This document shows, one piece after another, positions 6,073 through 32,814 of a DNA stretch of 32,814 nt (the first letter of the stretch is position 1; every line of letters starts with the position of its first letter). Position numbers and translations under genes: made by a program. Origin of the DNA: an uncultured Campylobacteraceae bacterium. Its GTDB lineage: Bacteria > Campylobacterota > Campylobacteria > Campylobacterales > Arcobacteraceae. Under the pieces are notes generated by a model. That model saw nothing but the letters and a program-made list of their open reading frames with translations, was not told the origin of the DNA and searched no databases. Location: positions 1-32,814 of the forward strand of contig CAKZOX010000153.1 in NCBI GenBank assembly GCA_937138295.1, read 5' to 3'.

Positions 6073-6098
6073 TCTTTTAGCTTCTTAAATTATTTTGC

Positions 6099-6176: not shown

Positions 6177-6216
6177 AAAAGGCTTAGAAGAACATTCAAG
6201 CCTTTTAATATTTTTT
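6177..6216 (+). terminator. Probable rho-independent terminator of the por operon.
   Basis: AAAAGGCTT (6177-6185) pairs with AAGCCTTTT (6198-6206) around a 12-nt loop, followed by AATATTTTTT. Confidence 0.5.
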
Positions 6217-6263
6217 AAAACCTCTTATTCTATAATTCGAACAAATTAAATCTAGGCTACATA

Positions 6264-7310: not shown

Positions 7311-7399
7311 TATAATATATACAATAGTATATTTTATAAACAACGTATAAAATACTTAAGTTTTTTTATTTGCTACAATAAAATAAAAAGGCTTAATAA

Positions 7400-8811: not shown

Positions 8812-9549
8812 ATGAACTACGAAGTGGTTACTACCCAAGATGGGTCTAATACCTTATACTCAAAACAATACAACCAGCATTATCATAATATAGATGACGG
8901 AGCTGTAAATGAGTCATTGCATAAGCATGTTATTCCATGTATAAGCTTTCATAAAAATGAAAAAAGCCTAAATATTTTAGATATATGTTTTGGAATTGGC
9001 TATAACAGTTTATCAACAATATATTATGTTAAAAAAAACAACTTAGATATAAAATTAAATATTTATTCACCTGAATTAGATGAATCACTTATAAATTCTC
9101 TAAAAGATTTTAATTATCCAAAAGAGTTTGACTTTTTAAAAGAGATTATAAATGAACTAAGCACTAATTATTTTTATGAAGATGAAAATCTAAAAATAGA
9201 AATAGGTATAGGTGATGCAAGAAAATATATAAAAAAATTTAATAAAGATTTTTTTAACATAGTTTATCAAGATGCATTTTCAAGTGATGTAAATAAAGAA
9301 TTGTGGACAAAAGAGTATTTTGATGATATTTTTAAAATATCTAATAAAAATGTAATCATGTCTACATACTCAATAGCAACTCCGGTTAGATTATCTATCT
9401 ATAAAGCTGGATTTGAAATATATCAATATATACCTGTAAAAAGAAAATTAAGTCTGTGTTTTAAAGAAAAACAAGATTTCATTGGAAAATATATTGATAT
9501 GGAATTAAAACAACAAAGAAACAAAGAAGCTAAACCAATCTATGACTAA
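8812..9549 (+). CDS. MnmC2/MnmD-like tRNA (mnm5s2U34) methyltransferase-domain protein (DUF752/Methyltransf_30), standalone.
   Basis: By eye, the blocks LDICFGIGYNSL and YQDAFSSDVNKELWTKEYFDDI...KAGFEI align with the E. coli MnmC N-terminal domain (D-[GA]-F-[AS]-P..N.E.W...F). Confidence 0.5.
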   Translation: MNYEVVTTQDGSNTLYSKQYNQHYHNIDDGAVNESLHKHVIPCISFHKNEKSLNILDICFGIGYNSLSTIYYVKKNNLDIKLNIYSPELDESLINSLKDFNYPKEFDFLKEIINELSTNYFYEDENLKIEIGIGDARKYIKKFNKDFFNIVYQDAFSSDVNKELWTKEYFDDIFKISNKNVIMSTYSIATPVRLSIYKAGFEIYQYIPVKRKLSLCFKEKQDFIGKYIDMELKQQRNKEAKPIYD

Positions 9550-10369: not shown

Positions 10370-10388
10370 ATTTAATACTTTCTAAGCT
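10363..10388. terminator. Hairpin spanning the 3' ends of the convergent FGase-like gene and pglB.
   Basis: AGCTTAGA (10363-70), 10-nt loop, TCTAAGCT (10381-88). The two stop codons are 2 nt apart. Confidence 0.3.
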
Positions 10389-13610: not shown

Positions 13611-16600
13611 CTATATATTAAAATAATTTGCCTTATGATGAGGCACAACTATTGCACATGTTGTTTGTTCAGGATGCATTTGATACGTTTCGCTAAGTTC
13701 TATTCCAAACTCTTCAGGTTTTAATAAATCAAAGAAATCTCTATTCATAGCTAAATCAGGACAAGCAGCGTACCCAGGAGAGTATCTACAACCAACATAT
13801 TGTTTCATTTGAACATCTTGTAAAGTATGCCCTTCTTTTGGAACAATATCTAAATCAAGTCTAATTTGCTTATGTAAAACCTCAGCTAATGCTTCTGCTA
13901 ATTCAACCCCAAGTCCATGAACTTGATAATACTCATTGAATTTACCCTCATCATATAAACTTCTCTCATAATCACTTATTTTAAGCCCTGCACTTGCTAA
14001 TGTAAACCCAACAACATCAAGTCTATCATTTGCAAAGAAATCAGCAACACTTCTAAATGGCTTTCTTTTTTGTCTTGGGAATTCTAATACTTTAATAGCC
14101 TCTTCTAAAGGTGGAACATTTTTAGCTTCCTCTTCACTATTAAATAAATATTTTTTATCAAATACATATAGTTTTCCATCATGTGAAACACAAGGATAAT
14201 ATGCATAAATCGCAATTGGATCAAATACATCTTTTTCAATTAGTTCTTCTTTTAATCTTTCATAAGTAGGTTCAACTACTTCTCTTTCATATTTTAAGAA
14301 CTCTTCGCTTGACTGTTTTCCTCTTTTATATCCCCATCTTTGTCTAAATAAAACCCTATGGTTTATCCACTTAAATACTAAGTCTTTATCAATCTTATTA
14401 CCACTTAAAGCAACTCTATCCCAAATAGGGGGGAAAGTAAATTCAGTTTTTTCAGGCATTTGGATTTCTTCATAAGGAGGAATTTCAACTACCTCTTTTT
14501 CAACACTATCACTTGTATCTTTTATTTGAATTAAATCAGCAGCTAAAGCTGTATTGTTTTCATCACCTGCTTCAATTCTTTGCATTGCAATAACACCATC
14601 AAATGCATCTCTACAATAAAAAATTGGACCTTCATAAATAGTTCTACAATAATCATCAACAAATGATTTAGTTAAGGCAGCTCCACCAAGTAAAATAGGA
14701 ACTTTAATCCCTTGTCTTGTTAATTCTTCAAGATTTTCTTTCATTACAGCAGTTGATTTTACAAGTAGTCCACTCATACCTAAAGCACTTGCTTTAGTCT
14801 CTTCAAATTTCTCAATAAATGTTGATAAATCAGCTTTAATACCAATATTTTCTACTTTAAATCCATTATTACTTAAAATAATATCAACTAAGTTTTTCCC
14901 AACATCATGTACGTCACCTTTAACTGTACCTAATACTAATGTTGTATCTGTTTCTTTTTCTTGTTTTGGTAAATATGGATTTAAAGCATCAACCGTTGCT
15001 TTCATAGTTTCAGCACTTTGAAGTACAAATGGTAATTGCATTTGCCCACTACCAAATAACTCACCAATTACTTTCATTCCATCAATAAGCCATTCATTTA
15101 CAATAATATCAGGTTCAACTTCGTGTCTTAATTCCTCAACTAAAGGAAGCATTCTATCTTTATCACCATCTAATAAAAGTTTTTTTACTTTATCAATTGC
15201 AGGTAATTTTTGATACTCTTCATCACTCTCTTCTTCTTGGTCTTCAAGATTTGAGAAATGATCAATAAATGCAAATAATGGATCACCATTTTCTTGATTA
15301 TTGAAAATTAAATCTTCACAAGCTTTTTTATCTTCATCTGAGATTTTATTTAAAGGTAAAATATGTTTTACATTTACAATAGCTGATGTTAATCCAGCTT
15401 TTACACATAAGTCTAAATAAATTGAATTTAAATAAACCCTTGCTTTTGTATCAAGTCCAAATGAGATATTTGATAAACCTAATGTAGTCCCAACTTCAGG
15501 GTGTCTAATTTGGAATTCTCTAATAGCTTCAAGTGTTTCAACACCAGCTGTTCTATATTCATCATCTCCTGAACCAATAGTAAATGTAAGCATATCAAAT
15601 ACTAAATCATCAGGTTTAAAGCCGTGTCTATTTACACATAAATCATAAATTCTTTCTGCAATTCTTAATTTATCTTCTTTTGTTTTAGCCATACCAACTT
15701 CATCAATTACAAGACAAACTAAAGCAGCACCAAATTTTTTAGCTAGTTTACAAACAGCATCAAACTTTTCTTCACCATCTTCAAGGTTTACAGAGTTTAT
15801 TATACATCTTCCACCTATTTGTTTTAAAGCAGCTTCAAGTGCTAAAATCTGAGTTGAATCAGGCATTAAAGGTAAAGATACCTTTTGAGAATATAGTTCA
15901 ACAACTTTATCCATATCTCCCGTTTCATCACGTCCTGCAAATCCAACACTTACATCAATAACATGAGCCCCTGCTCTTACTTGTTGCTGACCAACTGAAA
16001 GTGTTCCTTCATAATCATTTGCTTTAAGTAACTCTCTAAATGCTTTTGAACCAGTGGCATTACTTCTTTCACCTATTAAAAGTGGTGCTGGGTCTTGTTT
16101 TAAAGGAAGTGTATTAAACAGACTTGCTAATGAAGCTTTTAAAAATCCACAAGATGGTTTTGGTTCAATATCTTTTACTTCGTTGTAAAGTGCTTCAATA
16201 TGCTCAGGAGTTGTTCCACAACAACCACCTAACATTGATACTCCATTAATATCTAAGAAACCTTTTTGAAGTTTAGTAAACTCTTCAGGCCCCATTGGAT
16301 AATAAGTTTGCCCACCTCTATTTTGAGGAAGTCCTGCATTTGCGTGAACTGAAATTGGAAACTTTGATACTTCACTTAAAGTTTTTACATGCTTATGAAC
16401 TTGTTTTGGTCCAGTTCCACAGTTAAACCCTAAAGATAAAATATTAAAAGGCTCCATAATAGCAGCAATTGTTAAAGCATCAGTTCCTATAAGCATAGTT
16501 CCTGACATTTCAATTGTCACTGAAACCATAATAGGAATATGAGGTGCAGCATCATTTAATGCATGTAATGCTGCTTTAATTTGAAGTGGATCTTGACAAG

Positions 16601-17087
16601 TTTCAAGTAAGAAAATGTCAGCTCCACCGTCCCTTAAACCTTCAGCCATAATCTTATAACCATCATACATTTCATCATATTTAATATGACCTAAAGATGG
16701 TAGCTTTGTTCCAGGTCCAACAGATGCTAAACAAAATCTTGGTTTATCTGGTGTGCTATATTTTTCACAAACATCTTTTACTAATTTTGCTCCAAGTTTT
16801 GATAATTCATATGAAGTTTCACCTATTTGATATTCATCTAAAACCCATGGCATAGAACCAAATGTATTTGTACTTAATAAATCAGCACCAGCTTTTGCAT
16901 AGTTTTCATGTATTGTTGTTAAGATTTGAGGTGCAGTTAAATTTAATAATTCATTACATCCTTCTAAATCAGCACCTTCGTAAGTCCACTCTTCTTGAGT
17001 AATAGTTGCATTTTGAAGCTGTGTACCCATAGCTCCATCAATAATTAATACTTTTTTTCCAATTAAATCTTCAATTTTCTTTGACAT
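13611..17087 (-). CDS. metH: Cobalamin-dependent methionine synthase.
   Basis: 1158 aa. The Hcy-binding N-terminus is GAMGTQLQ...GADLLSTNTFG...LGGCCGTTPEHI; the B12-binding motif is GDVHDVGKNLV; the C-terminal region fits the AdoMet activation domain. Confidence 0.9.
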   Translation of the reverse strand: MSKKIEDLIGKKVLIIDGAMGTQLQNATITQEEWTYEGADLEGCNELLNLTAPQILTTIHENYAKAGADLLSTNTFGSMPWVLDEYQIGETSYELSKLGAKLVKDVCEKYSTPDKPRFCLASVGPGTKLPSLGHIKYDEMYDGYKIMAEGLRDGGADIFLLETCQDPLQIKAALHALNDAAPHIPIMVSVTIEMSGTMLIGTDALTIAAIMEPFNILSLGFNCGTGPKQVHKHVKTLSEVSKFPISVHANAGLPQNRGGQTYYPMGPEEFTKLQKGFLDINGVSMLGGCCGTTPEHIEALYNEVKDIEPKPSCGFLKASLASLFNTLPLKQDPAPLLIGERSNATGSKAFRELLKANDYEGTLSVGQQQVRAGAHVIDVSVGFAGRDETGDMDKVVELYSQKVSLPLMPDSTQILALEAALKQIGGRCIINSVNLEDGEEKFDAVCKLAKKFGAALVCLVIDEVGMAKTKEDKLRIAERIYDLCVNRHGFKPDDLVFDMLTFTIGSGDDEYRTAGVETLEAIREFQIRHPEVGTTLGLSNISFGLDTKARVYLNSIYLDLCVKAGLTSAIVNVKHILPLNKISDEDKKACEDLIFNNQENGDPLFAFIDHFSNLEDQEEESDEEYQKLPAIDKVKKLLLDGDKDRMLPLVEELRHEVEPDIIVNEWLIDGMKVIGELFGSGQMQLPFVLQSAETMKATVDALNPYLPKQEKETDTTLVLGTVKGDVHDVGKNLVDIILSNNGFKVENIGIKADLSTFIEKFEETKASALGMSGLLVKSTAVMKENLEELTRQGIKVPILLGGAALTKSFVDDYCRTIYEGPIFYCRDAFDGVIAMQRIEAGDENNTALAADLIQIKDTSDSVEKEVVEIPPYEEIQMPEKTEFTFPPIWDRVALSGNKIDKDLVFKWINHRVLFRQRWGYKRGKQSSEEFLKYEREVVEPTYERLKEELIEKDVFDPIAIYAYYPCVSHDGKLYVFDKKYLFNSEEEAKNVPPLEEAIKVLEFPRQKRKPFRSVADFFANDRLDVVGFTLASAGLKISDYERSLYDEGKFNEYYQVHGLGVELAEALAEVLHKQIRLDLDIVPKEGHTLQDVQMKQYVGCRYSPGYAACPDLAMNRDFFDLLKPEEFGIELSETYQMHPEQTTCAIVVPHHKANYFNI

Positions 17088-17164: not shown

Positions 17165-17764
17165 CTATTGTTTATTAACAACAACTCTTATTACACTTGC
17201 TTCACCTTGATGACCAATTCCCTCATCTAAATGAACAATTTCTTTTGTAATATCTTTTTTACAAGATGTAAATACATTTTCAAAATCGCTCAAATCATAT
17301 AATAAATCTAAGGCTTTTGGTCCACCACTTTTGTAATTTAATTGCTCTTTAGAAAAAAATTCAGCAATAAAATATCCACCTTTATTTAGATTGTTTTCAA
17401 TTTTATTAAACAATGAATTTCTATCTTCTTCAAACATATGTAAATACGTAGCAATAATCACATCATACTTTTTTTCATCATTCCAATTATTTAAATCCAT
17501 ATTTATACAATGAATATTTAAGCACTCATCATTTGCTCTATATTTTAGCTTATCAAGTCCTATATCACTTGCATCAATTGCAGTAACTTCAAAACCTTCT
17601 TTTGCTAAAAAAATAGCATTTCTTCCTTCACCTTCACCTAAACATAAAACTTCTTTTTTACTCTTCATTAGTTCAAGTTTTGATTTTATAAAAGCATTTG
17701 GATCAAGTCCATATAAATAATCAACCTTTCCAAACTTATCATTCCAAAAATGTTTTTGTTCCAT
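17165..17764 (-). CDS. Class-I SAM-dependent methyltransferase (TehB/TPMT-like small MTase).
   Basis: Motif I VLCLGEGEGRNAIFLAKEGFEVTAIDAS. 199 aa. Confidence 0.65.
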   Translation of the reverse strand: MEQKHFWNDKFGKVDYLYGLDPNAFIKSKLELMKSKKEVLCLGEGEGRNAIFLAKEGFEVTAIDASDIGLDKLKYRANDECLNIHCINMDLNNWNDEKKYDVIIATYLHMFEEDRNSLFNKIENNLNKGGYFIAEFFSKEQLNYKSGGPKALDLLYDLSDFENVFTSCKKDITKEIVHLDEGIGHQGEASVIRVVVNKQ

Positions 17765-21368: not shown

Positions 21369-21755
21369 ATGAAAAAATTAAACTTTCTTTTATTTACCCT
21401 AATTACAATTGTTGCGATTATTTTATTTTTTTATTTTAACCAAGAAAAAGAGATAAAAAAGACTCAAAAGTTAAATGAAAAAAATAAAGTAATTCAAGAA
21501 AAAAAAGTTATCAAAAAAGAAGAAGTTAAAAAAAATCCAGAAACAATTCAAGAATTAGATTTGACATTGCGTGAAAAAAAGATAATTGATGAAAATAGTT
21601 TTAAAAAAAATGAAAATTATGAAGCACCAATTCCTTTAAATAGTGATATTAAATTAGAAAATAAAAAAGATATTGACATAAATATTGATATGGATGTAAA
21701 TAAAGAAACTAAATCTGTAGATGGCGTTGAATTAAATATACAAAAGAAATTTTAA
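21369..21755 (+). CDS. Hypothetical Lys/Glu-rich protein with an N-terminal membrane anchor.
   Basis: 128 aa. MKKLNFLLFTLITIVAIILFFYF followed by a highly charged low-complexity region. Confidence 0.3.
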   Translation: MKKLNFLLFTLITIVAIILFFYFNQEKEIKKTQKLNEKNKVIQEKKVIKKEEVKKNPETIQELDLTLREKKIIDENSFKKNENYEAPIPLNSDIKLENKKDIDINIDMDVNKETKSVDGVELNIQKKF

Positions 21756-21773
21756 AACTAAACAAGGTAAAAA

Positions 21774-22457
21774 ATGGAATCATTAAATAAAATTGACTGG
21801 GAAAAAGTAGACGGATTAGTTCCTGTTATCACTCAAGATGCAACAAGTAATGAAGTACTAATGTTAGCATATGTAAATAAAGAAGCTTTACAACTAACTT
21901 TAGAAACAAAGTTTGCACACTACTTTTCAAGAACAAAACAAAGACTTTGGAAAAAAGGTGAAAGTTCAGAGCATACTCAAGAAATAGTTGATGTTTTAAT
22001 TGATTGTGATAATGATACTTTAATTTTTAAAGTTAATCAAAAGGGTGTAGCTTGTCACACAGGTAGAAAATCTTGTTTCTTTACTAAGCTTGAAACTAAT
22101 GAAGAGACTCATAAAATTGAAGTTGATACAAGTGCTGCTTATGGAGTAATTGATAACTTATATCACACAATTATTGAAAAGAAGAATGATGATCCTAAAA
22201 AATCATACACAGCAAAACTACTTCAAGGTAAGCAAAATTCTATGCTTAAAAAAATCATTGAAGAAGCAGGTGAGTTTACATTTGCAGTTAAAGATAATGA
22301 CCATGAAGAAATAGTTTATGAAGGTGCTGATTTAATGTATCACTGTTTAGTTGCCCTTGCTTCAAAAAATATCTCACCAGATCAAATCAAACAAGAACTA
22401 GCTAGAAGATTTGGTATGAGTGGAATTGAAGAAAAAAACTCAAGACCTCAAGATTAA
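21774..22457 (+). CDS. hisIE: Bifunctional phosphoribosyl-AMP cyclohydrolase / phosphoribosyl-ATP pyrophosphatase.
   Basis: HisI block LVPVITQD....ML.YVNKEAL..TLETK.AHYFSRT...LWKKGESS..CDNDTL...C..G..SCFF. The HisE (MazG-like) C-terminal half is LYHTIIEKK....SYTAKLL.GK...KKI.EEAGE. Confidence 0.85.
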   Translation: MESLNKIDWEKVDGLVPVITQDATSNEVLMLAYVNKEALQLTLETKFAHYFSRTKQRLWKKGESSEHTQEIVDVLIDCDNDTLIFKVNQKGVACHTGRKSCFFTKLETNEETHKIEVDTSAAYGVIDNLYHTIIEKKNDDPKKSYTAKLLQGKQNSMLKKIIEEAGEFTFAVKDNDHEEIVYEGADLMYHCLVALASKNISPDQIKQELARRFGMSGIEEKNSRPQD

Positions 22458-22476
22458 GAAGTAGTTTTACTTCTTA
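22455..22476. terminator. Hairpin spanning the overlapping 3' ends of convergent hisIE and the mazG-like gene.
   Basis: TAAGAAGTA (22455-63), loop GTTT, TACTTCTTA (22468-76). Both stop codons lie inside the stem. Confidence 0.35.
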
Positions 22477-22814
22477 TTCCCGTACGCTATTTCATTACCA
22501 TTTTCATCAATAAGTGGATATTTTTTCTCATTTTTATCCATTTTACTTAAAATTGCTTCTTCTAAATCAATATCATATTTCATACAAATTCTAAGTAAAT
22601 AAATAGCAACATCAGCTATCTCTTCTTTTAAGTGCTCTTTTTTATCGCCACTTAAATTTGAAGCTTGCTCTAAAGTTAACCATTGAAATATTTCAACTAA
22701 CTCAGCTGTTTCAACACTAAGAGCCATAGCTAAATTTTTTGGGTTGTGGTGTTGATTCCAATTTCTATCATCTGAAAACTTTTGTATTCTTTGTTTTATT
22801 AAATCTATATTCAA
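22467..22814 (-). CDS. MazG-like nucleotide pyrophosphohydrolase (single-domain, YpjD/MazG-type).
   Basis: 115 aa. RNWNQHHNPKNLAMALSVETAELVEIFQW...LKEEIADVAIYLLRIC is the EExxE/D MazG motif. Confidence 0.65.
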   Translation of the reverse strand: MNIDLIKQRIQKFSDDRNWNQHHNPKNLAMALSVETAELVEIFQWLTLEQASNLSGDKKEHLKEEIADVAIYLLRICMKYDIDLEEAILSKMDKNEKKYPLIDENGNEIAYGNKK

Positions 22815-22889
22815 AACTATTCCCTTTTACAAAAAGATTCACTATTATATCAGTAGATGTTTTTAAATTTTTTAAATAAGGATTTTTAT

Positions 22890-23774
22890 ATGGCAAAACT
22901 AGGATTTATTGGTTTAGGAATTATGGGTATACCTATGGCTGGACATTTAATAAAAGCTGGAAATGAAGTTTACTTACATACTAGAAGTGAAATATCAAAA
23001 GAGCTTTTAGATATAGGTGGTATAGCTTGTAAAAATGCCTGTGAAGTTGGTAAAAATGCAGATATTATATTTATAATGGTTCCAAATACTAACCATGTAT
23101 ATGATGTTTTATTTGGAAAAGATGGAATATCTAATGGAATATCTAAGGGTAAATATATAGTTGATATGAGTACTATATCTCCAATTGACACAAAAGAGTT
23201 TGCAAAAAAAATAAATGATTTAGGCTGTGAATACTTAGATGCTCCTGTTTCAGGTGGTGATGTTGGTGCTAAAAATGCTACATTATCTATTATGGTTGGA
23301 GCTAATGAAGAAGCTTTTGAAACTGTAAAACCATATTTTGAAATCATGGGACAAAACATAACTTTAGTTGGTAAAAATGGAGATGGTCAAATTGCTAAAT
23401 TAGCAAATAACATAATAGTTGCCCTTAATATTGAAGCTGTAAGTGAAGCTTTAGTATTTGCATCAAAAGCAGGTGCCAATCCTCAAAAAGTAAAAGATGC
23501 TTTAATGGGTGGTTTTGCCACTTCAAAGGTTTTAGATATTCATGGTCAAAAAATGATTGATAGAACATTTGAACCGGGATTTAAAGTAGAACTTCATCAA
23601 AAAGATTTAAATTTAGCCCTTGATAATGCACAAAAATTAGGAGTAGCCTTACCTAATACTGCAAATACAATGCAATTATATAATTCATGTATAGCTGATG
23701 GTGAAGGTCAAAAAGATCATTCTAGTTTAGTAAAAAGTATTGAGAAATTAAGTAATTTTGAGATTCAAAAATAA
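22890..23774 (+). CDS. NAD(P)-dependent 3-hydroxyisobutyrate / 2-hydroxy-3-oxopropionate reductase-family oxidoreductase.
   Basis: The Rossmann N-terminus MAKLGFIGLGIMGIPMAGHL and the catalytic-region pattern fit the HIBADH/GarR family. AAGGA RBS precedes the ATG at 22890; the track start at 22857 adds a non-conserved 11-aa extension. Confidence 0.7.
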   Translation: MAKLGFIGLGIMGIPMAGHLIKAGNEVYLHTRSEISKELLDIGGIACKNACEVGKNADIIFIMVPNTNHVYDVLFGKDGISNGISKGKYIVDMSTISPIDTKEFAKKINDLGCEYLDAPVSGGDVGAKNATLSIMVGANEEAFETVKPYFEIMGQNITLVGKNGDGQIAKLANNIIVALNIEAVSEALVFASKAGANPQKVKDALMGGFATSKVLDIHGQKMIDRTFEPGFKVELHQKDLNLALDNAQKLGVALPNTANTMQLYNSCIADGEGQKDHSSLVKSIEKLSNFEIQK

Positions 23775-23781
23775 AAGCTAA

Positions 23782-23805
23782 TAAAAGAAGTAAAAACTTC
23801 TTTTA
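23782..23805. terminator. Bidirectional hairpin terminator between the convergent oxidoreductase and mrp genes.
   Basis: TAAAAGAAGT (23782-23791), loop AAAA, ACTTCTTTTA (23796-23805). T/A tracts flank both sides. Confidence 0.6.
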
Positions 23806-23818
23806 TTAAATAGTTGTC

Positions 23819-25009
23819 TTAGTGACAACCACATCCTGTTCCACAAGAACCACCACTTGACTGTTGTGCTTGAGGTTGAGAAGCAGCAGCTGTACTTGCA
23901 CCCGCTGTTGAACATGCACTAACACCTGGAGGTGTTGTTGGTTGTATAGACTCATTAGAAATATCATCATCAACGCTATCTAAAAATGCAATTAACTTTT
24001 CAGCTGCTTGCATATATCTTTTTGCAGAAATTGATTCAGGGTTAAAGTAAGTTACTGGTTTACCAGCATCTCCACCTTCTCTAATAGCAGGTTCAATAGG
24101 TAAATTACCTAATACTTGAGTATTATATGAATCAGCTAAAGTATCACAAGTTCCCATTCCAAAGATATCAGATTCAGTTTCACATGATGGACAAATAAAT
24201 CCACTCATATTTTCAACAATACCAGCAACTGGAATGTGAAGTTTTTTAAACATATCTAATGATCTTCTTGAATCATCAAGGGCAACATGTTGAGGAGTAG
24301 TTACATTTACACCAGCACTAACAGGAACACTTTGAGCTAATGTTAATTGAGCATCACCAGTTCCTGGAGGCATATCAATAAATAAGATATCTAATTCTTC
24401 CCATAAAATATCTCTTAATAATTGTTGAATAGCCTTCATAATCATAGCACCTCTCCAAATAAGAGCCTGCCCTTCCTCCATTAAGTTACCCATAGACATA
24501 ACATCTACACCAAAGGCATTTAATGGTTTAGCTTTATTACCAACTACTTCAACTTCAGCACCATTTAAACCCATCATTCTAGGAATGTTTGGACCATAAA
24601 TATCTGCATCTAAGATACCTACTTTTTTACCTTGCATAGATGCTGCAATTGCTAAGTTAACAGTAGTAGTTGATTTTCCAACTCCACCTTTACCTGAACT
24701 TACCATTACAACTTTTTTAATTTGAGGAGCCATGTTTTTACCACTAACTGAGTTAGAGTTTTGTTTTGGAGCCTCTGGTTTTTTAATGTTTAAAGTAATA
24801 TCTAAACCTAAAGAAGCTAATTTTTCATTAATATCTTTTCTTAATGCTTCTTCAACTTCAGGTGCACTTGAAGTAATATCAAGTGTAATTGCACACGCTG
24901 AACCACTTACTTGAACATCTTTTACGAAACCAAAATCAATAATAGATTTTGAGAAACCTGGATATTGTACGTTTGATAATTCTTTTTTAACATCTTCAAT
25001 ATTTGCCAT
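23819..25009 (-). CDS. apbC: Mrp/ApbC/NBP35-family Fe-S cluster carrier ATPase with an N-terminal DUF59 domain and an extra C-terminal Cys/His-rich tail.
   Basis: P-loop GKGGVGKSTTTVNLA; CPSC cluster-ligating motif; DUF59-like N-terminal domain. The last ~45 aa (..QPTTPPGVSACSTAGASTAAASQPQAQQSSGGSCGTGCGCH) are low-complexity plus a Cys cluster. Confidence 0.8.
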   Translation of the reverse strand: MANIEDVKKELSNVQYPGFSKSIIDFGFVKDVQVSGSACAITLDITSSAPEVEEALRKDINEKLASLGLDITLNIKKPEAPKQNSNSVSGKNMAPQIKKVVMVSSGKGGVGKSTTTVNLAIAASMQGKKVGILDADIYGPNIPRMMGLNGAEVEVVGNKAKPLNAFGVDVMSMGNLMEEGQALIWRGAMIMKAIQQLLRDILWEELDILFIDMPPGTGDAQLTLAQSVPVSAGVNVTTPQHVALDDSRRSLDMFKKLHIPVAGIVENMSGFICPSCETESDIFGMGTCDTLADSYNTQVLGNLPIEPAIREGGDAGKPVTYFNPESISAKRYMQAAEKLIAFLDSVDDDISNESIQPTTPPGVSACSTAGASTAAASQPQAQQSSGGSCGTGCGCH

Positions 25010-25112
25010 ATCAAAAATCCTTTTTGTATTTATTAAAATTTGTTTTTTTGTATTATAATTGAAATAGGATAATTTTTGTCTTAATTAAAAAGAAAAAAAT
25101 TTAAATCCTGTT

Positions 25113-25137
25113 AAAAAGAGGAAAAATTCCTCTTTTT
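25113..25137 (-). terminator. Rho-independent terminator immediately 3' of thiC. It is palindromic and could act in both directions.
   Basis: AAAAAGAGGAA (25113-25123), AAA loop, TTCCTCTTTTT (25127-25137). It begins 3 nt after the thiC stop. Confidence 0.7.
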
Positions 25138-25139
25138 AA

Positions 25140-26498
<1,359 letters not shown>

Positions 26499-26649
26499 CT
26501 ATAATTTAAAAAATATTAAATAAATTGTTTTGATTATATCAAAAAATATTTATATCTGCTTAATTTATTTACTTATTTTAAATTATTAATCTTGTAAGTT
26601 TCATTTTGATATGATTTGACATAAATAACAAATCTAACATGTAGAATAT

Positions 26650-27465
26650 ATGAATAACGAATTAATAAGAACAATAAAATCTATACCGCCTTTACCAGAC
26701 AATATTACTGATTTAGAAGAGTTTAAAAAACTTAATAATGAAGATGTTGACACTTTAACAGAAATAATAAATAGAGATCCACTTATGACAGCTACTGTTT
26801 TAAGAGTTGCCAACTCAACTATGTTTGGATTTAGAAGTGAAATTGAAACTGTTAATAAAGCAATAAATCTATTAGGTATAAATTTTACAATCTCAATAGC
26901 AATTGGTTCAGCAATACAAAACTCTGTAAAAAGTAATTTAAGTGCCTACGGAGTTACAAATGAGGATTTTTTATTTTCTTCAATGTTAGCAACAAAACTT
27001 GTAAATTCTTGGGTAGCATCTATTGATAATAATCTATTAAAAGACTTAGTTTTACCAGCATTCTTACAAGACATAGGTAAATTTGTAATATCGCAAGTTA
27101 TTCAAAATAAAAAACTTACAAATGATTTTTTAAAAAGACTAAGTGAAATTCATGATTTATCAAAAATAGAAATTGAATTTGTAGGATATTCTACTTCTAG
27201 AATTACTGCAAATATCTTTAAACATTGGTCATTATCTCACAAACTTATTTTACCTATTGCCTTTGTAGAAAACATTGAAAACTGTCCTGAAACATTTTTA
27301 AAACAGTCTCAAATTTTACACATTATCAAAATATTAACAACAGTTACAGAACCACTTAGTGAAAATATGATTGAATTAGCTTCACAAAAAGCACTTGAAT
27401 ATGGCTTTGATGTTGAGAATTTAAAATTTTGTGTAAATGCTATAAAAAAGAAAATAGAAATTTAA
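26650..27465 (+). CDS. HDOD-domain signalling protein.
   Basis: 271 aa. LPPLPDNITDL...LTEIINRDPLMTATVLRVANSTMFG...INLLGINF... is the typical HDOD (PF08668) N-terminal pattern. Confidence 0.6.
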   Translation: MNNELIRTIKSIPPLPDNITDLEEFKKLNNEDVDTLTEIINRDPLMTATVLRVANSTMFGFRSEIETVNKAINLLGINFTISIAIGSAIQNSVKSNLSAYGVTNEDFLFSSMLATKLVNSWVASIDNNLLKDLVLPAFLQDIGKFVISQVIQNKKLTNDFLKRLSEIHDLSKIEIEFVGYSTSRITANIFKHWSLSHKLILPIAFVENIENCPETFLKQSQILHIIKILTTVTEPLSENMIELASQKALEYGFDVENLKFCVNAIKKKIEI

Positions 27466-27521
27466 CTTTTCATAAGTAAGAAGCTTGTATAATTTGTAAC
27501 TTTTTTACACAAAGGTAGATT

Positions 27522-28649
27522 TTGATTGATGTAAGCCTCATTATTCTCTGCGCTGGAAATTCAACTAGGTTTGAACATAAAAGCAAAAAGCAGTGGCTAA
27601 GAATAGATAACGAACCTCTTTGGTTATACGTAGCCAATAGACTAAATAACAACTTCTCTTTTAAAGAAATAATAATAGTAAGCTCTCCCTTAGAATTAAA
27701 CTACATGAAGAATTTTAGCGATGATTATATTTACACAACTGGTGGAGACACTAGACAACAATCATTGAAAAATGCTTTACAAATAGTTACATCATCTAAA
27801 GTTATGGTAACAGATGTTGCAAGATCTTGTGTACCATTTGATGTTTTAAATAGATTAATTCAAGCAAAAGATGAAGCTGATTGTATTGTTCCTGTATTAG
27901 ATGTTAGTGATACTGTAATTTATGGGAATGAAACTATCAATAGAGATGAAGTTAAATTGGTTCAAACACCTCAATTATCAGATACAAATATTTTAAAAAA
28001 TGCTTTAAATACAAATATAGAATATACAGATGATAGTTCAGCAATCAAAGCAAATAACGGAAGTGTAAAATACATAAAAGGTGATACACAAAGTAAAAAA
28101 TTAACTTTTGGAAGTGAACTTAAAGATATTGATTGTTTAAAAGAACCTTCTAAAAACTTTTTTACAGGCTTTGGATATGATGTACACGCCTTTGAAGATA
28201 AAAAACCTATGTTTTTAGGTGGAGTGAATATTCCATGTGATTATGGATTTAAAGCACATAGTGATGGAGATGTATTAATACATTCAATTATTGATGCTCT
28301 TTTAGGTGCTATTGGTGCTGGTGATATTGGAGAATTTTTCCCTGATACAGATGAAAAATACAAAGGTGCTGACTCAAAAATCTTATTACAAGAGATTGTA
28401 TCGTTTGTTCACAGTGTTGGATATGAAATAGTAAATATTGATGCTTTAATAGTAGCTCAACAACCAAAAATCAATCCTCACAAACAAGAAATAAAATCAT
28501 CTTTAGCCAAGATTATAAATCTACCTAAACAATTTATAAACATAAAAGCTACTACCTCTGAAAAGATGGGTTTTATTGGAAGAAAAGAAGGAGTTGCAGT
28601 TCATAGTGTTGCAACTTTGAAATATTATAACTGGATGGAAAAACAATGA
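27522..28649 (+). CDS. ispDF: Bifunctional 2-C-methyl-D-erythritol 4-phosphate cytidylyltransferase / 2-C-methyl-D-erythritol 2,4-cyclodiphosphate synthase.
   Basis: IspD N-terminus LIILCAGNSTRF. IspF C-half GFGYDVHAF...HSDGDVLIHSIIDALLGA..GDIGEFFPDTD. The start is TTG (no in-frame ATG) and is preceded by AAAGGTAG. Confidence 0.85.
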   Translation: MIDVSLIILCAGNSTRFEHKSKKQWLRIDNEPLWLYVANRLNNNFSFKEIIIVSSPLELNYMKNFSDDYIYTTGGDTRQQSLKNALQIVTSSKVMVTDVARSCVPFDVLNRLIQAKDEADCIVPVLDVSDTVIYGNETINRDEVKLVQTPQLSDTNILKNALNTNIEYTDDSSAIKANNGSVKYIKGDTQSKKLTFGSELKDIDCLKEPSKNFFTGFGYDVHAFEDKKPMFLGGVNIPCDYGFKAHSDGDVLIHSIIDALLGAIGAGDIGEFFPDTDEKYKGADSKILLQEIVSFVHSVGYEIVNIDALIVAQQPKINPHKQEIKSSLAKIINLPKQFINIKATTSEKMGFIGRKEGVAVHSVATLKYYNWMEKQ

Positions 28650-29539
28650 ATATACTAATAATAGAAAACGAAATTTACCTAGCTCAAAAAGTAGTATCAA
28701 GACTACTTGATGATGGACATAGTTGTGATTATATTGAATCACCAAATATTGATAACTTAACGAAAGAATACGATACAGTTTTATTATCAACATCTTTACC
28801 TTCTGCTTTAGTATCAAGTATTATTAAAAAATATTCTCCATCTGCAATTATTCTTTTACTTGTTTCATATATATCTGATGAAACAGTTACTCACCCTATT
28901 GAAGAAGGTGCAAAAGATTATATTATGAAACCATTTATTATGGATGAATTAGTAAGAAAAATCTATCACTACAAAGAGTGTAGAAGTATGAGAAGAGAGC
29001 TAGCAACACTTAAAGAATACATGGAATTTGTAATGAAAGATATTGATACAAGTGAAGTATTATTACCCCACTCATTTCCAACTTTAATAGAAACAAATTC
29101 ACAATTAAGTGCTGATAAGTTAACTTTTGAATTGGCTAAAAAACTAGATAAATCAATAACATTTATTGACTTAACAGAAGCAAATTGGCAAAAGAAAATT
29201 GCTAATTTTAATGAATCAAAAGTGTTTATGTATCTAACAAATTATCATAGTTTAAAAAAGACTGCAAAAGACAATTTAAATAAGTTGATTGAACATAAAG
29301 ATGTAATTATTAGTTCCCTTGAAGCTGAAGAAGACTTCCCTTATAGAAAAGTTGAATTCTATGATGAAGATTCATTGGTTAGCAATTCAAATATAATGAC
29401 AATAAATGACTATGTAAAAATGATGGTACTATCTTATCAAAGTAAATATCCAGATACAGAACTATCAAAAAAACTTGGTATATCAAGAAAATCTCTTTGG
29501 GAAAAGAGAAAGAAACTTGGTATTGAAAAGAAAAAGTAA
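28646..29539 (+). CDS. Atypical orphan response regulator of the HP1021 / Cj1608 (CemR) type, with a pseudo-receiver domain lacking the phospho-acceptor Asp and a C-terminal Fis-type HTH.
   Basis: 297 aa. Aligned to CheY, the REC fold has DD12/13 replaced by EN (ILIIENE) and D57 replaced by Ser (TVLLSTSLP); T87 to S and K109 are conserved (IMKPF). The C-terminus LSKKLGISRKSLWEKRKKLGI is a Fis-like HTH. Start ATGA overlaps the ispDF stop. ispDF-regulator synteny matches HP1020-HP1021 / Cj1607-Cj1608 as recalled. Confidence 0.6.
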   Translation: MNILIIENEIYLAQKVVSRLLDDGHSCDYIESPNIDNLTKEYDTVLLSTSLPSALVSSIIKKYSPSAIILLLVSYISDETVTHPIEEGAKDYIMKPFIMDELVRKIYHYKECRSMRRELATLKEYMEFVMKDIDTSEVLLPHSFPTLIETNSQLSADKLTFELAKKLDKSITFIDLTEANWQKKIANFNESKVFMYLTNYHSLKKTAKDNLNKLIEHKDVIISSLEAEEDFPYRKVEFYDEDSLVSNSNIMTINDYVKMMVLSYQSKYPDTELSKKLGISRKSLWEKRKKLGIEKKK

Positions 29540-29548
29540 GGATTTAAA

Positions 29549-30031
29549 TTGTTTAGAAAAGCATTTTTAACTGTTGGTTTTAGTGGACTTAGTCCAAAAG
29601 CTCCAGGAACTGTTGGTTCATTTGTATCTTTAATTTTAGGTCTTTTACTTCTACAGATTATAGCTGATTCAACGCTATTTTTATTAGCAATACTAATCAC
29701 AGTAATTGCAGTTAAAGAAATAAATAAATATGAAGAACAAGTTGGAGAGCATGATAGTAAAGAAATCGTAGTAGATGAACTTGCTGGTATGTGGATAGCT
29801 TTAGCTATTTGTGGTTTAAATGACTCAAATATTTATTATATGGCTCCATTAGCTTTTATATACTTTAGAATTTTTGATATTTGGAAGCCTTCAATTATTG
29901 GAAGAATTGATAGAGATGTAAAAGGTGGTTGGGGAGTAATGCTTGATGATGTAATAGCTGGACTTGCAGCTGGTATTGCAACAGCTGCTACGTATCAACT
30001 TATAGAAAAGTTTGTATTACCTCAAATTTAA
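29549..30031 (+). CDS. pgpA: Phosphatidylglycerophosphatase A.
   Basis: 160 aa. GFSGLSPKAPGTVGS...ELAGMW..L is the PgpA family signature. Confidence 0.75.
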   Translation: MFRKAFLTVGFSGLSPKAPGTVGSFVSLILGLLLLQIIADSTLFLLAILITVIAVKEINKYEEQVGEHDSKEIVVDELAGMWIALAICGLNDSNIYYMAPLAFIYFRIFDIWKPSIIGRIDRDVKGGWGVMLDDVIAGLAAGIATAATYQLIEKFVLPQI

Positions 30032-30035
30032 CAGC

Positions 30036-30060
30036 AGACTAAAAACATAGTTTTTAGTCT
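30036..30060. terminator. Perfect 11-bp hairpin between convergent pgpA and lsrK, likely a bidirectional terminator.
   Basis: AGACTAAAAAC (30036-30046), loop ATA, GTTTTTAGTCT (30050-60). Confidence 0.5.
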
Positions 30061-30067
30061 AAACCTA

Positions 30068-31630
30068 TCATAGCCCTGGAGCTTTCCACATAGATGTAGT
30101 TAGATTTTTATCAACTAACTCTAATTGAGCTTTATATATTTTTTGCCATTTTTCTTTTATATCATCATACAGTTTTTTATTTTGCATATTTGGCTGATAT
30201 TCTTTATCCCAAACTACAAGTCTTTTTGATGCCTCTTTTAAATTTTCATAAACCCCAGCACCAACTCCAGCACTCATAGCAGCACCTAATGCTGTAGCTT
30301 CAGTTACTTTTGGAATGCTGACTTTACATCCTGTTACGTCAGCTAAAGTTTGACTCCATAGCTCACCTTTACTAGCTCCTCCTGCAAAGACAATATTATT
30401 TATATTTATATTTGTAAACTCTTTGATTTTATCAAGATTAATAGAACTTACAATACAAGCATTTTCTTGTAGAGATTTAAACATAGAAAACCTATTACAA
30501 GTGTTTGAGTCAATACTAAGGTTTATAAAACTTGGAGCCGCATGGTACCATTTACCGTAATTCATACTATCACTAAAAATAGGCATAATTCCATATGAAC
30601 CAACGGGAATATTTTTTGATTTTTGCTCTAATAAAGTATAAGTATCAATATTTTTTTCTTTCGCTTCAAGTTTTTCTAAATCACAAAAGGCATCCCTAAA
30701 CCATCTCATTACTAAACCAGAAAAAAACGTAATACCTTCTGCTTGAGATTGATCACTTATTACATGGGGATTAACCCTAATTGACATATCTTTTGGTGGT
30801 GTAGTATCTTTTGAGATATTTACAATTTGTTGCCAAAATGAACCACCTAAAATAGCCACATCCCCAATATTAACTACTCCAAGCCCAGCACTACCAAGTT
30901 GTACATCTCCACCACCCATAACTACTTTTGTATCAGTTGATAAATTAACTTCTTTTGAAATATCTTCTTTAACTGTTCCTATTACTGTTCCAACTTCATA
31001 GCAAGGTGTAAAAATATCATCTTTGATACCTACTTTTTTTGCCATACTTGAGTCCCAAGTTCTTTTATTTAAACTAAAGATTCCAGTTGTTCCACCATTG
31101 CTTGGATCAACAGCAATTACCCCTGAAAGTTTTGCTAATATCCAATCTCCTATCATAGAAATAGCTGAAACTTTTTCGTAAATATCAGGTTTATTGTTTT
31201 TTAGCCAAAGAATTCTAGGTAATGCTCCAAGTGCAAAAGTTTGACCTGAAATTTCATAAAACTCTTGCTCTATATTTTCAAAATTTTCTTTTAAGTATTT
31301 AACTTCATTACTAGCTCTTGCATCTACATTTGCAACAGCCCATAATTCATTTCCATCTTTATCGTATAAAACAATACCTTCTCTCATACTAGTTGAACTT
31401 AAGGCTAGGATATCTTTTGAGTTAATTTTAGCTTCACTAATGGCTTCATTTATACAATGTTTTACTAAATTCCAATTATTTTTAAAATCAAAACTCATAC
31501 TATTTGGAACACCCTCTTCTTCAAGGTGAGTCCACTCTTTTTGAGACATAGAAATTTGATTTCCATTTGTATCGAAAATTACAACTCTTATACTTCCTGT
31601 TCCTGCGTCAATTGCCATTAGGTATTGCAT
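30068..31630 (-). CDS. lsrK: Autoinducer-2 kinase (FGGY family, LsrK subfamily).
   Basis: 520 aa. It matches E. coli LsrK (recalled from memory) along the whole length. Shared blocks include YLMA[IL]DAGTGSIR.VIFD..GNQI; VDPSN.GTTG; GGGDVQLG..GLGVV; FWQQVVN; RVNPHVI; FF[TS]GL.MRWFRDAFC..EKL; DTYTLLE; MPIFSD.M....WYHAAPSFINLSID; VFAGG.SKG.LWSQ.LADV.G. Its C-terminus LTTSMWKAPGL matches LTTSLWKAPGL. Confidence 0.8.
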   Translation of the reverse strand: MQYLMAIDAGTGSIRVVIFDTNGNQISMSQKEWTHLEEEGVPNSMSFDFKNNWNLVKHCINEAISEAKINSKDILALSSTSMREGIVLYDKDGNELWAVANVDARASNEVKYLKENFENIEQEFYEISGQTFALGALPRILWLKNNKPDIYEKVSAISMIGDWILAKLSGVIAVDPSNGGTTGIFSLNKRTWDSSMAKKVGIKDDIFTPCYEVGTVIGTVKEDISKEVNLSTDTKVVMGGGDVQLGSAGLGVVNIGDVAILGGSFWQQIVNISKDTTPPKDMSIRVNPHVISDQSQAEGITFFSGLVMRWFRDAFCDLEKLEAKEKNIDTYTLLEQKSKNIPVGSYGIMPIFSDSMNYGKWYHAAPSFINLSIDSNTCNRFSMFKSLQENACIVSSINLDKIKEFTNININNIVFAGGASKGELWSQTLADVTGCKVSIPKVTEATALGAAMSAGVGAGVYENLKEASKRLVVWDKEYQPNMQNKKLYDDIKEKWQKIYKAQLELVDKNLTTSMWKAPGL

Positions 31631-31641
31631 TCAATTTTCCT

Positions 31642-32814
31642 CTACTTTTTTAATTTAGCTTGTTCTAATTCCCAGTATTCCATTTCAAAACTATCTTTAA
31701 GTGAAATTGATTCATATCCACCTAATTTATCAGCTCTTAAAACAGCTATCATAGTGTGCTCAACTATATCATTGATAATATTTGCTTCTTTTTCATTTTT
31801 TCCAAAACTAATTACACCAAAATCTTTTATTACAGCATAATTTGGTGCTTTATTTAAACAAATTTCATCTTTAGCAAATTCATTAAAATAGTTTTCATAG
31901 TTTGATTTAAACTCATTTATTGATGATTCAATACTATTGTAATCTTCAATAATTAAAGGCACTCTTTTTGTTCTTATTATGTGCTCGGGAGTTAATACAC
32001 CTCTACAAGCAAACTCTTTTAAGTTCTCTTTTGAAGCGTATGTTTTTGCTAAATTTGATGTATTTATCATTGCTACAACATCAAAATCTTTTTCCTTAGA
32101 AATTAAATCTTTTAGTTTTTGAACATCAAAATCTTTATTTTGTAGATTTTCATTTAATTTTAAACTTGCATTTTCATTTAAAAAATCTTCAGCTTTTGAA
32201 ACTGCTTCAATCATCTTATCATATGATTTTTTAGCATCATCATCAAAAGTGAAAATTCCATGATTATGTAAAATAATACCTTCGCATTTATTCCAATCTA
32301 TATCTTTACTCATTTCATATATTTTCTTAGCAAGGATAAATCCAGGCATTACATATGGAATAATCAAGAAATTTGGAAATACTTTTTGTATGTTTTGAAT
32401 TCCAGTTTTAGAATTTGACATAGTTACAACTGCATCTGCATGTGTATGATCAACAAATTTAAAAGGAATAATTGCATGTAAAATAGCTTCAACAGATGGA
32501 TTAGGTGCAGTTTTATCAATCATCGCTGCCTTTTGTTCACTAACCATATCAGTATCACTTAAAGTTTCATATTGAGCCATTTTCTTTAAAACATCAAGTT
32601 TTACAGGGGCAAAACCTTCTTCTTTTATAGAAACCAAATCCCAACCACTTCCTTTTACAAGTAGTATTTCTTCACCATCAATTACACTTTTAACTGAAGT
32701 GTTTCCACCACCATGTAATACAAGTTCATCACTTCTTCCTAAAAGATTTGATGTATATACTCTTAAAGCTAAATCACCTTGAAAGTTTTTAGCTTCTTCA
32801 TCACTCCAAAGATT
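31642..32814 (-). CDS. Class-II aldolase/adducin-family protein, RhaE-like (aldolase half of the bifunctional YuxG/RhaEW family, without the SDR domain). It is 5'-truncated by the window edge.
   Basis: The frame is open to base 32814: NLWSDEEAKNFQGDLALRVYTSNLLGRSDELVLHGGGNTSVK... then HTHADAV and LHNHGIFTF (Zn-aldolase HxH...H motifs). It aligns block-by-block with the B. subtilis YuxG N-terminal ~390 aa (recalled) and ends (EYWELEQAKLKK*) where the YuxG SDR domain would begin. The track 'M' at 32637 is an internal TTG. Confidence 0.7.
   Translation of the reverse strand, partial: NLWSDEEAKNFQGDLALRVYTSNLLGRSDELVLHGGGNTSVKSVIDGEEILLVKGSGWDLVSIKEEGFAPVKLDVLKKMAQYETLSDTDMVSEQKAAMIDKTAPNPSVEAILHAIIPFKFVDHTHADAVVTMSNSKTGIQNIQKVFPNFLIIPYVMPGFILAKKIYEMSKDIDWNKCEGIILHNHGIFTFDDDAKKSYDKMIEAVSKAEDFLNENASLKLNENLQNKDFDVQKLKDLISKEKDFDVVAMINTSNLAKTYASKENLKEFACRGVLTPEHIIRTKRVPLIIEDYNSIESSINEFKSNYENYFNEFAKDEICLNKAPNYAVIKDFGVISFGKNEKEANIINDIVEHTMIAVLRADKLGGYESISLKDSFEMEYWELEQAKLKK

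Follow-up and report, generated by a model that had tools for sequence, protein, structure and literature searches.

Autoinducer-2 (AI-2), or 4,5-dihydroxy-2,3-pentanedione (DPD), is made by every bacterium that bears LuxS, and the Lsr system, with LsrF as its last step, is to our knowledge the only known catabolic route for it. In E. coli, phosphorylated DPD (P-DPD) is converted by LsrG into 3-hydroxy-2,4-pentadione-5-phosphate (P-HPD) and the hydrate P-TPO, and LsrF then moves the acetyl group to CoA, which yields dihydroxyacetone phosphate (DHAP) together with acetyl-CoA (PMC8016206; E. coli annotation). It has long been asked whether AI-2 serves Epsilonproteobacteria/Campylobacterota as a signal or merely arises in their metabolism as a by-product (PMC2628731). 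Here, we describe an lsrK gene and a stand-alone class II aldolase gene at the end of a stretch of DNA from an uncultured Campylobacteraceae bacterium (CAKZOX010000153.1, positions 1 to 32,814; all 32,814 nt are referred to as the window), and propose that they belong to a variant of Lsr processing in which the aldolase takes the place of LsrF.

Two further systems resemble this locus. In the DHAP shunt, or 5-deoxyribose salvage (MtnK/DrdK, MtnA/DrdI, Ald2/DrdA), pentoses derived from 5'-methylthioadenosine (MTA) as well as 5'-deoxyadenosine are converted into DHAP and an aldehyde (PMC6079011; PMC10986504). The second is RhaEW/YuxG (TIGR02632), the fusion of a rhamnulose-1-phosphate aldolase with a lactaldehyde dehydrogenase of the short-chain dehydrogenase/reductase (SDR) type.

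The locus shares with the Lsr system of E. coli and Salmonella (LsrK, LsrG, LsrF, LsrACDB, LsrR) an orthologous kinase with 54% identity and an invariant proposed DPD pocket, an ABM-fold protein of LsrG length within the operon and the expected outcome, DHAP with a C2 unit. It differs in that a protein of the metal-dependent class II aldolase fold stands in the place of LsrF, that neither LsrACDB nor LsrR is found at the loci, that the ABM protein reaches an identity of only about 26-29% with LsrG and lies below the family cut-off, that glutamate 122 of the kinase is replaced by tyrosine, and that the C2 product would likely be acetate and not acetyl-CoA. With the DHAP shunt it has in common the sequence of kinase, isomerase and class II aldolase by which a C5 by-product of S-adenosylmethionine (SAM) is turned into DHAP and a C2 fragment (PMC6079011; PMC10986504); its aldolase belongs to a family whose fused members adjoin mtnK and mtnA, and at two loci both gene sets are adjacent. 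However, the kinase is of the FGGY/LsrK and not the APH-type MtnK family, the isomerase has an ABM fold instead of an IF-2B fold, and the substrate would originate from S-ribosylhomocysteine via LuxS and not from MTA or 5'-deoxyadenosine. C4 of this substrate is a ketone, and the leaving fragment would be at the oxidation level of an acid, not of an aldehyde.

The kinase, the aldolase and the gene beyond the window edge

The elements at this end of the window are the following:
29549-30031, plus strand: pgpA, convergent with the kinase gene
30029-30070, no strand assigned: AT-rich hairpin, candidate bidirectional terminator, overlapping the stop codons of the kinase gene and pgpA
30068-31630, minus strand: lsrK orthologue, autoinducer-2 (DPD) kinase, 520 aa
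31631-31641, minus strand: intergenic spacer of 11 nt, read from the sequence, with an AGGA ribosome-binding site for the kinase
31642-32814, minus strand: stand-alone class II aldolase (Pfam/NCBIfam), proposed LsrF substitute; 390 of 392 codons lie in the window and the first two codons past its edge

The kinase carries FGGY_N (E=9e-45) and FGGY_C (E=6e-20) domains (Pfam). On NF008187, the NCBIfam equivalog for LsrK (cut-off 528), it reaches 873.5 bits. The runner-up model, xylulokinase, scores 195 bits, and the models for gluconokinase, glycerol kinase, fuculokinase, ribulokinase and rhamnulokinase remain at or below this value. Residues 2-520 are colinear with residues 22-540 of the crystallized E. 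coli LsrK (5ya0; E=1e-190; 54% identity overall), and the C-terminal LTTSMWKAPGL is part of this alignment. Ten residues of LsrK (T21, S91, M92, R93, D253, V254, F276, Q278, E308 and I310) have been proposed as the DPD pocket (PMC8016206); all ten of these modeled positions are identical in the window kinase and invariant in 73 of 73 aligned relatives. Judged by its sequence, the kinase is thus a true LsrK orthologue, and neither a rhamnulokinase nor a xylulokinase, which upholds the end-to-end orthology proposed in the preliminary description of this locus. The residue proposed as the HPr switch of E. coli LsrK, E122, corresponds to a tyrosine (residue 112) in the window kinase; this position is Tyr in 56 of the 73 relatives and Phe in 8, and several residues of the hydrophobic HPr pocket are likewise changed. 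Control of the kinase by the phosphotransferase system (PTS) via HPr is probably absent.

The full length of the aldolase gene could be taken from a public contig (L084; GCA_965659825.1), which is 98.9% identical to window positions 21643-32814 and extends further upstream (aldolase at L084:10001-11179). An Aldolase_II domain (PF00596) spans residues 28-206 (74.2 bits vs. a cut-off of 22.2; Pfam) and precedes a second conserved domain of about 170 aa; an SDR half is missing. Of the 583 positions of NF006197, a model for bifunctional aldolase/SDR enzymes, the protein covers 4-410, and of the 676 positions of TIGR02632 it covers 5-405; it stays under all bifunctional cut-offs (459.6 vs. 627 bits for NF006197, 446 vs. 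831 for NF006196 and 209 vs. 568 for TIGR02632). In fused relatives, the SDR begins at about residue 407-414; the window aldolase ends at residue 392 and therefore, as described before, at the domain boundary. Motifs of FucA-type aldolases are present, namely GGGNTS for phosphate binding, NPSVE with the catalytic Glu, and DHTHAD and HNHG for the metal-binding His triad. They align with G28/N29, S71-E73, H92/H94 and H155 of FucA, where the equivalence of PSVE to S71-E73 was assigned by eye, as MAFFT gapped that stretch. An AlphaFold (AF2) model (pLDDT 79) adopts the class II aldolase fold, and its top Foldseek matches are 3m4r, FucA, DrdA (6btg) and YgbL.

A search of 1.8 billion representatives identified two kinds of nearest relatives that are not stand-alone, one of 520-570 aa that keeps a degenerate SDR remnant, the other comprising fused aldolase-SDR enzymes of 650-690 aa. 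The extensions at the C-terminus of the former were inspected for a fused ABM domain and contain none; they resemble degenerate Rossmann/SDR remnants. In aldolases linked to LsrK, the SDR half is lost or degenerate, which would fit a cleavage product that is not an aldehyde. A metagenome scan with the aldolase alignment located most fused forms at a distance from LsrK, while about 17 of 80 adjoin an isomerase of the IF-2B/MtnA type. In a neighbor-joining tree without support values, the stand-alone aldolases of Campylobacterota form one clade, and its sister group comprises the aldolases of loci L090 and L097 together with the fused aldolase-SDR enzymes of loci L095 and L096, which adjoin the DHAP-shunt genes mtnK and mtnA. 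Only seven positions discriminate LsrK-linked from MtnA-linked aldolases, and none of them falls into the known metal or phosphate motifs. Within a GxLTP[E/D]H motif (around aldolase residue 279; window about 31978-31989, minus strand), the variable position is Glu in all LsrK-linked aldolases of Campylobacterota and in those of L090 and L097, and Asp in all 76 fused enzymes that are of the MtnA type or unlinked.

These relationships bear on the label "RhaE-like" that the aldolase had been given. Although it shares with RhaEW/YuxG the N-terminal aldolase and the middle domain of about 170 aa, colinear with TIGR02632 positions 5-405, it lacks the SDR half, scores far below the cut-off of that model and is nearer to the NF006196/NF006197 subfamilies. 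No rhaA, rhaB, rhaM or transporter gene is found near the module, and the nearest relatives adjoin mtnK and mtnA and not rhamnose genes. On the basis of sequence, the protein is better named a paralogue of the MtnA-linked aldolase/SDR enzymes, and the earlier label should be dropped.

Comparison with L084 revealed that the window edge falls 6 nt before the ATG of the aldolase gene. Directly beyond it lies a gene for a 96-aa protein with an ABM domain (PF03992; E=3.9e-15; L084:9708-9998), which ends 2 nt upstream of this ATG, so that the order is ABM gene, 2-nt gap, aldolase, 11-nt gap, kinase. The unit is a three-gene operon, ABM-aldolase-lsrK, of which the window holds the 3' two-thirds. The spacing of 11 nt between the aldolase and kinase genes implies co-transcription. 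It had been noted previously, with a ribosome-binding site that overlaps the stop codon of the aldolase gene; the junction reads TAG-AGGAAAATTGA-ATG, in which AGGA follows directly after the stop codon and does not overlap it. A 123-nt AT-rich spacer, in which only a TATAAT-like box is recognizable by eye, separates the ABM gene from carA upstream. Neither in the window nor in front of the ABM gene did scans for consensus promoters and terminators give signals that exceeded those of shuffled sequences. The hairpin at positions 30029-30070 folds with -14.9 kcal/mol (z = -2.96). The convergent pgpA and the hairpin described earlier are both present, but a clear U-tract is lacking from the hairpin, and scanning the window for consensus terminators called nothing there.

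The genes upstream in L084 are carA, purA and a hisZ-like gene, with no rhaA, rhaB, fucI or sugar transporter gene among them. A rhamnose or fucose utilization locus, which the preliminary description had named as an arrangement that would speak against an LsrK module, is thereby ruled out. No riboswitch or other RNA family was detected with Rfam in the window, L084, L095, L096, L002 and L003 or, at E<=1, in the region upstream of the ABM gene, and a link of the module to an S-adenosylhomocysteine (SAH) or SAM riboswitch was rejected on these grounds.

The ABM protein has the same length as E. coli LsrG and is colinear with it from end to end at 26-29% identity, with several columns that are invariant in both groups. 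LsrG (NF007791) is its sole NCBIfam match, hhalign aligns the two proteins with a probability of 94.8% (29% identity), and a tblastn query with E. coli LsrG recovers the ABM gene in 40 loci. E56 and H67 of the ABM protein are presumably equivalent to the catalytic residues E54 and H65 of LsrG. By sequence, the protein is LsrG-like rather than a demonstrable LsrG orthologue. The absence of LsrG from view, reported before, is literally correct for the window, yet misleading, because the window ends 6 nt short of the aldolase ATG with the ABM gene right beyond.

Distribution and gene neighborhoods

One genome per GTDB species was scanned with the kinase, which yielded 80 kinase loci, all of them in Campylobacterota (Arcobacter, Halarcobacter, Sulfurimonas, Sulfurovum, Sulfurospirillum and others). 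The window kinase had no exact match in the sequence look-up, and a homologue with 99% identity to it, along with P0121 as the homologue of the aldolase, stood in. Using tblastn and ORF clustering, the ABM gene was identified at 57 of 82 kinase loci and the aldolase gene likewise at 57 of 82 Campylobacterota kinase loci. Among the 60 well-covered loci, defined by at least 2.5 kb upstream and at least 1 kb downstream of the kinase, all three genes are present in 47 and the ABM and kinase genes in three. The gap between the aldolase and kinase genes is at most 30 nt in 39 of 55 loci and that between the ABM and aldolase genes at most 18 nt in 43 of 53; a permuted order, aldolase-kinase-ABM, occurs in five loci. 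Flanking genes differ widely and the next commonest neighbor family is found in only 11 loci. The recurrent pairing of LsrK with a class II aldolase that the preliminary description led one to look for is thus widespread in Campylobacterota, and it extends to Ferrimonas and to one unassigned contig.

In Ferrimonas marina (Gammaproteobacteria), a 537-aa aldolase with an SDR remnant is followed by LsrK (59% identity with the window kinase, 58% with E. coli LsrK) and then by a 122-aa cupin. L090, a contig without taxonomic assignment, carries an aldolase, a methyltransferase and LsrK. Cupin_2 proteins of 122-124 aa are also encoded directly after lsrK at L021:9564-9938 (plus strand) and in 10 other Arcobacter-type loci. 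The Arcobacter protein is 68% identical to that of Ferrimonas marina (L088:11201-11569, plus strand), and there are weak matches to mannose-6-phosphate and lyxose isomerase cupins; the gene is absent from the window. The Ferrimonas cupin might serve as an alternative isomerase where no ABM gene is near.

The radical-SAM gene mqnE adjoins the module in 11 loci, and metK lies inside or next to it in nine Sulfurimonas-type loci. Three loci combine the module with further genes of SAM metabolism:
L096:2097-11968, plus strand: eight-gene array that resembles a "SAM by-product salvage island," with two paralogous class II aldolases side by side
L095:1454-9388: ABM, LsrK, MtnK, MtnA, fused aldolase/SDR and MetK
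L097:2831-8811: ABM, LsrK, MetK and an aldolase with degenerate SDR

The array of L096 reads, on one strand and with minimal gaps, ABM, metK, mtnK, mtnA, fused aldolase/SDR, stand-alone aldolase, lsrK and mqnE. Its proteins pass the respective NCBIfam cut-offs (MtnK 496 vs. 275, MtnA 417 vs. 279, the fused enzyme 1018 vs. 831 and MqnE 645 vs. 560). Genes of the mtnK/mtnA type do not adjoin the module in the window or in L084; they adjoin only the fused paralogue in L095 and L096.

E. coli LsrR, LsrB, LsrC, LsrD and LsrF gave no tblastn match (E<=1e-3 for LsrF) in either the window or the 84 related loci, the rest of the genomes not having been searched. What LsrA matched are generic ABC ATPases that belong to transporters of the molybdate or polyamine type. 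At the level of the loci, this agrees with the earlier statement that the module comes without Lsr transporter, LsrR and LsrF. No transporter family recurs near the module in the 82 loci.

A proposed route for DPD and its alternatives

P-DPD, CH3-CO-CO-CHOH-CH2OP, lacks the 1-phospho-2-keto-3-hydroxy (DHAP) end that class II aldolases require, whereas P-HPD, CH3-CO-CHOH-CO-CH2OP, has it. By structural analogy, P-HPD can be viewed as a DHAP unit with an acetyl group on C3, that is, as the 4-oxo analogue of 5-deoxyribulose-1-phosphate, the substrate of the DHAP-shunt aldolase. Because the DHAP motif is present in the LsrG product only and not in P-DPD, the aldolase is best read as a substitute for LsrF alone. 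We therefore propose, with moderate confidence and from sequence, gene linkage and chemistry, that the ABM-aldolase-LsrK module phosphorylates, isomerizes and cleaves DPD, and that the aldolase replaces the CoA-dependent thiolase LsrF.

In the first step of this route, LsrK would phosphorylate linear DPD at C5, as its orthology and invariant pocket suggest; DPD would be supplied by the LuxS of the cell itself and possibly by uptake as well. The ABM protein would then isomerize P-DPD to P-HPD in the manner of LsrG, a step to which its remote homology and gene linkage point. Finally, the aldolase would bind the DHAP-like end of P-HPD and cut the C-C bond to the acetyl group, releasing DHAP and a C2 unit, which is consistent with the chemistry and with its kinship to DHAP-shunt aldolases. 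The DHAP enediolate could stay bound at the FucA-type metal site as the leaving group, with water attacking the carbonyl of the acetyl group, so that the C2 unit would most simply be acetate. Cleavage of P-HPD would explain why the isomerase gene travels with the aldolase, why the latter was recruited from the DHAP-shunt family and why the SDR half, which handles aldehydes, is lost or decayed in LsrK-linked copies. We take the 3-oxo-tetronate-4-phosphate decarboxylase OtnC/YgbL (6vop) to be a fold precedent in which DHAP is released from a C4-oxidized substrate; it differs in that it releases CO2 from a carboxylate and cleaves no acetyl group, and its similarity to the module aldolase is at the level of the fold only. 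The aldol route put forward in the preliminary description is supported, but the bypass of LsrG that was part of it is not, as a protein of the LsrG fold heads the operon and is encoded at 57 of the 82 kinase loci.

Several observations weigh against this proposal. All of its steps are inferred from sequence, linkage and chemistry, and we know of no precedent for C-C cleavage of a beta-diketone by a class II aldolase fold. This fold also houses epimerases, dehydratases, decarboxylases and dioxygenases. The ABM protein misses the LsrG equivalog cut-off by a wide margin (27.4 and 25.7 bits vs. 135 on NF007791), and several uncharacterized ABM structures in the PDB are nearer to it than LsrG is. 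The list of DPD-pocket residues derives from homology and a docking model and not from a substrate complex (PMC8016206). The kinase stands alone in 10 of the 60 well-covered loci and the aldolase is missing in three more, and there is no ABM gene within 8 kb in Ferrimonas and L090. The metK and mqnE neighborhoods are confined to Sulfurimonas-like loci and may reflect one ancestral arrangement. Moreover, the absence of LsrF and of the import genes applies to the window and the related loci, not to whole genomes.

As to the role of the module, cytoplasmic disposal or salvage of DPD is the likeliest, in place of a signal-import circuit of the Lsr type, because no transporter or LsrR is linked to the module and its relatives are found among genes for the salvage of SAM by-products. 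A classical function in uptake and quenching, in which AI-2 imported by an unlinked or unknown transporter would be processed and the quorum sensing of neighbors disturbed, concerns the role only, is compatible with the proposed mechanism and appears unlikely. Such a function would parallel enteric bacteria, whose LsrK, LsrG and LsrF process imported AI-2 (PMC8016206), and an EamA-family transporter is encoded divergently upstream of the module in two Halarcobacter loci. It is opposed by the lack of a transporter family that recurs in the 82 loci and of LsrB, LsrC, LsrD and LsrR homologues at these loci, and an endogenous substrate is suggested by the linkage to metK, mtnK and mtnA and by the presence of luxS in the genome.

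A different substrate is improbable. Another deoxy-pentulose, such as 5-deoxyribulose from 5'-deoxyadenosine or a 1-deoxy-pentulose, might be phosphorylated by a diverged LsrK-family kinase, converted by the ABM protein as a mutarotase or isomerase and cleaved to DHAP and acetaldehyde. The closest relatives of the aldolase adjoin MtnK and MtnA, the 5-deoxyribulose-1-phosphate aldolase DrdA (6btg) is among the fold matches, and the radical-SAM gene mqnE is a neighbor in 11 loci, all of which would suit such a pathway. Yet the kinase lies far above the LsrK cut-off with every other FGGY model scoring far lower, and all ten proposed DPD-site residues are invariant. In L096, a complete set of mtnK, mtnA and fused aldolase/SDR stands beside a separate stand-alone aldolase and lsrK, which indicates that the two sets are not redundant. 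An aldehyde product should also have preserved the SDR half, which is lost or degenerate, and an aldose-ketose isomerase like RhaA or FucI is missing.

To a similar degree, we doubt that the "aldolase" is not a C-C lyase at all, but an epimerase, dehydratase, decarboxylase or oxygenase that acts on P-DPD or P-HPD and forms a product other than DHAP. The other fold matches of the model include L-ribulose-5-phosphate 4-epimerase, the YgbL decarboxylase family, pyruvic oxime dioxygenase, NovR and the MtnB-type dehydratase APIP, and thus leave room for such an activity. However, the protein retains the motifs of true FucA-type aldolases for phosphate binding, the His triad and the catalytic Glu, and it belongs to the same family as rhamnulose-1-phosphate aldolase/SDR and the MtnA-linked fused enzymes. 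Many hosts of the module are microaerophiles or anaerobes, which counts against an oxygenase.

Least likely of all is a direct path in two steps, in which P-DPD is cleaved by the aldolase without an isomerase: only the kinase and aldolase are visible inside the window and Ferrimonas and L090 combine these two genes with no ABM gene nearby, but ABM is the first cistron in the 98.9%-identical contig and at 47 of the 60 well-covered loci, P-DPD, with its C4 hydroxyl and C3 ketone, would by chemical reasoning offer no DHAP-type end to a FucA-like metal site, and the weakly sugar-isomerase-like cupin of Ferrimonas could supply the missing step.

A full-text literature search found no paper that describes an LsrK-class II aldolase variant, which is in line with the earlier suggestion of an undescribed route. 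The genes are already labeled "autoinducer-2 kinase" and "class II aldolase/adducin family protein" in databases, so that the novelty lies in the reading of the pathway and not in the genes. In our reading, what is new is a form of Lsr processing that lacks the parts for import and regulation and in which a non-orthologous protein would replace LsrF.

A broader version of the proposal is put forward only tentatively. LuxS-positive Campylobacterota and some Gammaproteobacteria (Ferrimonas) might possess a cytoplasmic, transporter-independent branch of the activated methyl cycle for DPD salvage that consumes the DPD of the cell itself, in which the aldolase, recruited from a DHAP-shunt aldolase/SDR by loss of the SDR, acts as a CoA-independent C-C hydrolase that splits P-HPD into DHAP and acetate. 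SAH, MTA and 5'-deoxyadenosine would then all be channeled to DHAP by paralogous enzyme sets. If this version is correct, the presence of luxS would not equal AI-2 production in these lineages. The proposed route itself, if true, would define a fate of DPD in bacteria that carry the widespread LsrK-ABM-aldolase operon, and some luxS-positive organisms would be expected to release little AI-2 or to quench it. It would furthermore add a new enzyme activity, the metal-dependent cleavage of a phosphorylated beta-diketone to DHAP, and tie DPD metabolism to the DHAP-shunt salvage of other SAM by-products.

Other genes of the window and locus-specific arrangements

Further genes of the window are the following:
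391-1905, plus strand: periplasmic SBP_bac_5 solute-binding protein
2876-6072, plus strand: four-subunit pyruvate:ferredoxin oxidoreductase cluster
7844-8359, plus strand: luxS (S-ribosylhomocysteine lyase), 69% identity to E. coli LuxS (tblastn), Pfam LuxS E=2.7e-56, 22 kb from the module
8812-9549, plus strand: SAM-dependent methyltransferase
10372-12519, minus strand: PglB-type oligosaccharyltransferase
13611-17087, minus strand: metH (B12-dependent methionine synthase; Pfam S-methyl_trans, Pterin_bind, B12-binding, Met_synt_B12), context only
17165-17764, minus strand: SAM-dependent methyltransferase
28646-29539, plus strand: 297-aa protein whose start overlaps the end of ispDF

The presence of luxS in the window indicates that the organism makes its own DPD. 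MetH catalyzes the step of the activated methyl cycle that follows LuxS, and since luxS, metH and methyltransferase genes are found together in one 33-kb window, a LuxS-type activated methyl cycle is present in the source genome. The pyruvate:ferredoxin oxidoreductase cluster and the PglB-type oligosaccharyltransferase are typical features of Campylobacterota. The AI-2-binding proteins AibA and AibB of Helicobacter pylori presumably belong to the broad SBP_bac_5 family, like the solute-binding protein at positions 391-1905, which may well be a coincidence. The 297-aa protein shows a sub-threshold receiver-domain match and has a basic, helix-turn-helix-like C-terminus; the order ispDF, 297-aa gene, pgpA is kept in several Arcobacter and Halarcobacter loci.

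Kinase-only loci were also considered as possible Lsr loci and rejected, as their neighbors are molybdate and polyamine-type ABC systems, lipopolysaccharide-heptose genes and trpB. In Halarcobacter ebronensis (L002:11643-14681), small proteins, among them a PemK toxin and a TIR (ThsB-like) protein, are encoded after the kinase gene; this block looks like a defense or mobile insertion at the place where the window has pgpA. In three Arcobacter genomes (L027, L029 and L032; about 3050-7760), the operon is split by a five-gene block on the opposite strand between the aldolase gene and lsrK, which includes genes for a glycerophosphodiester phosphodiesterase and a PotABCD-like ABC transporter.

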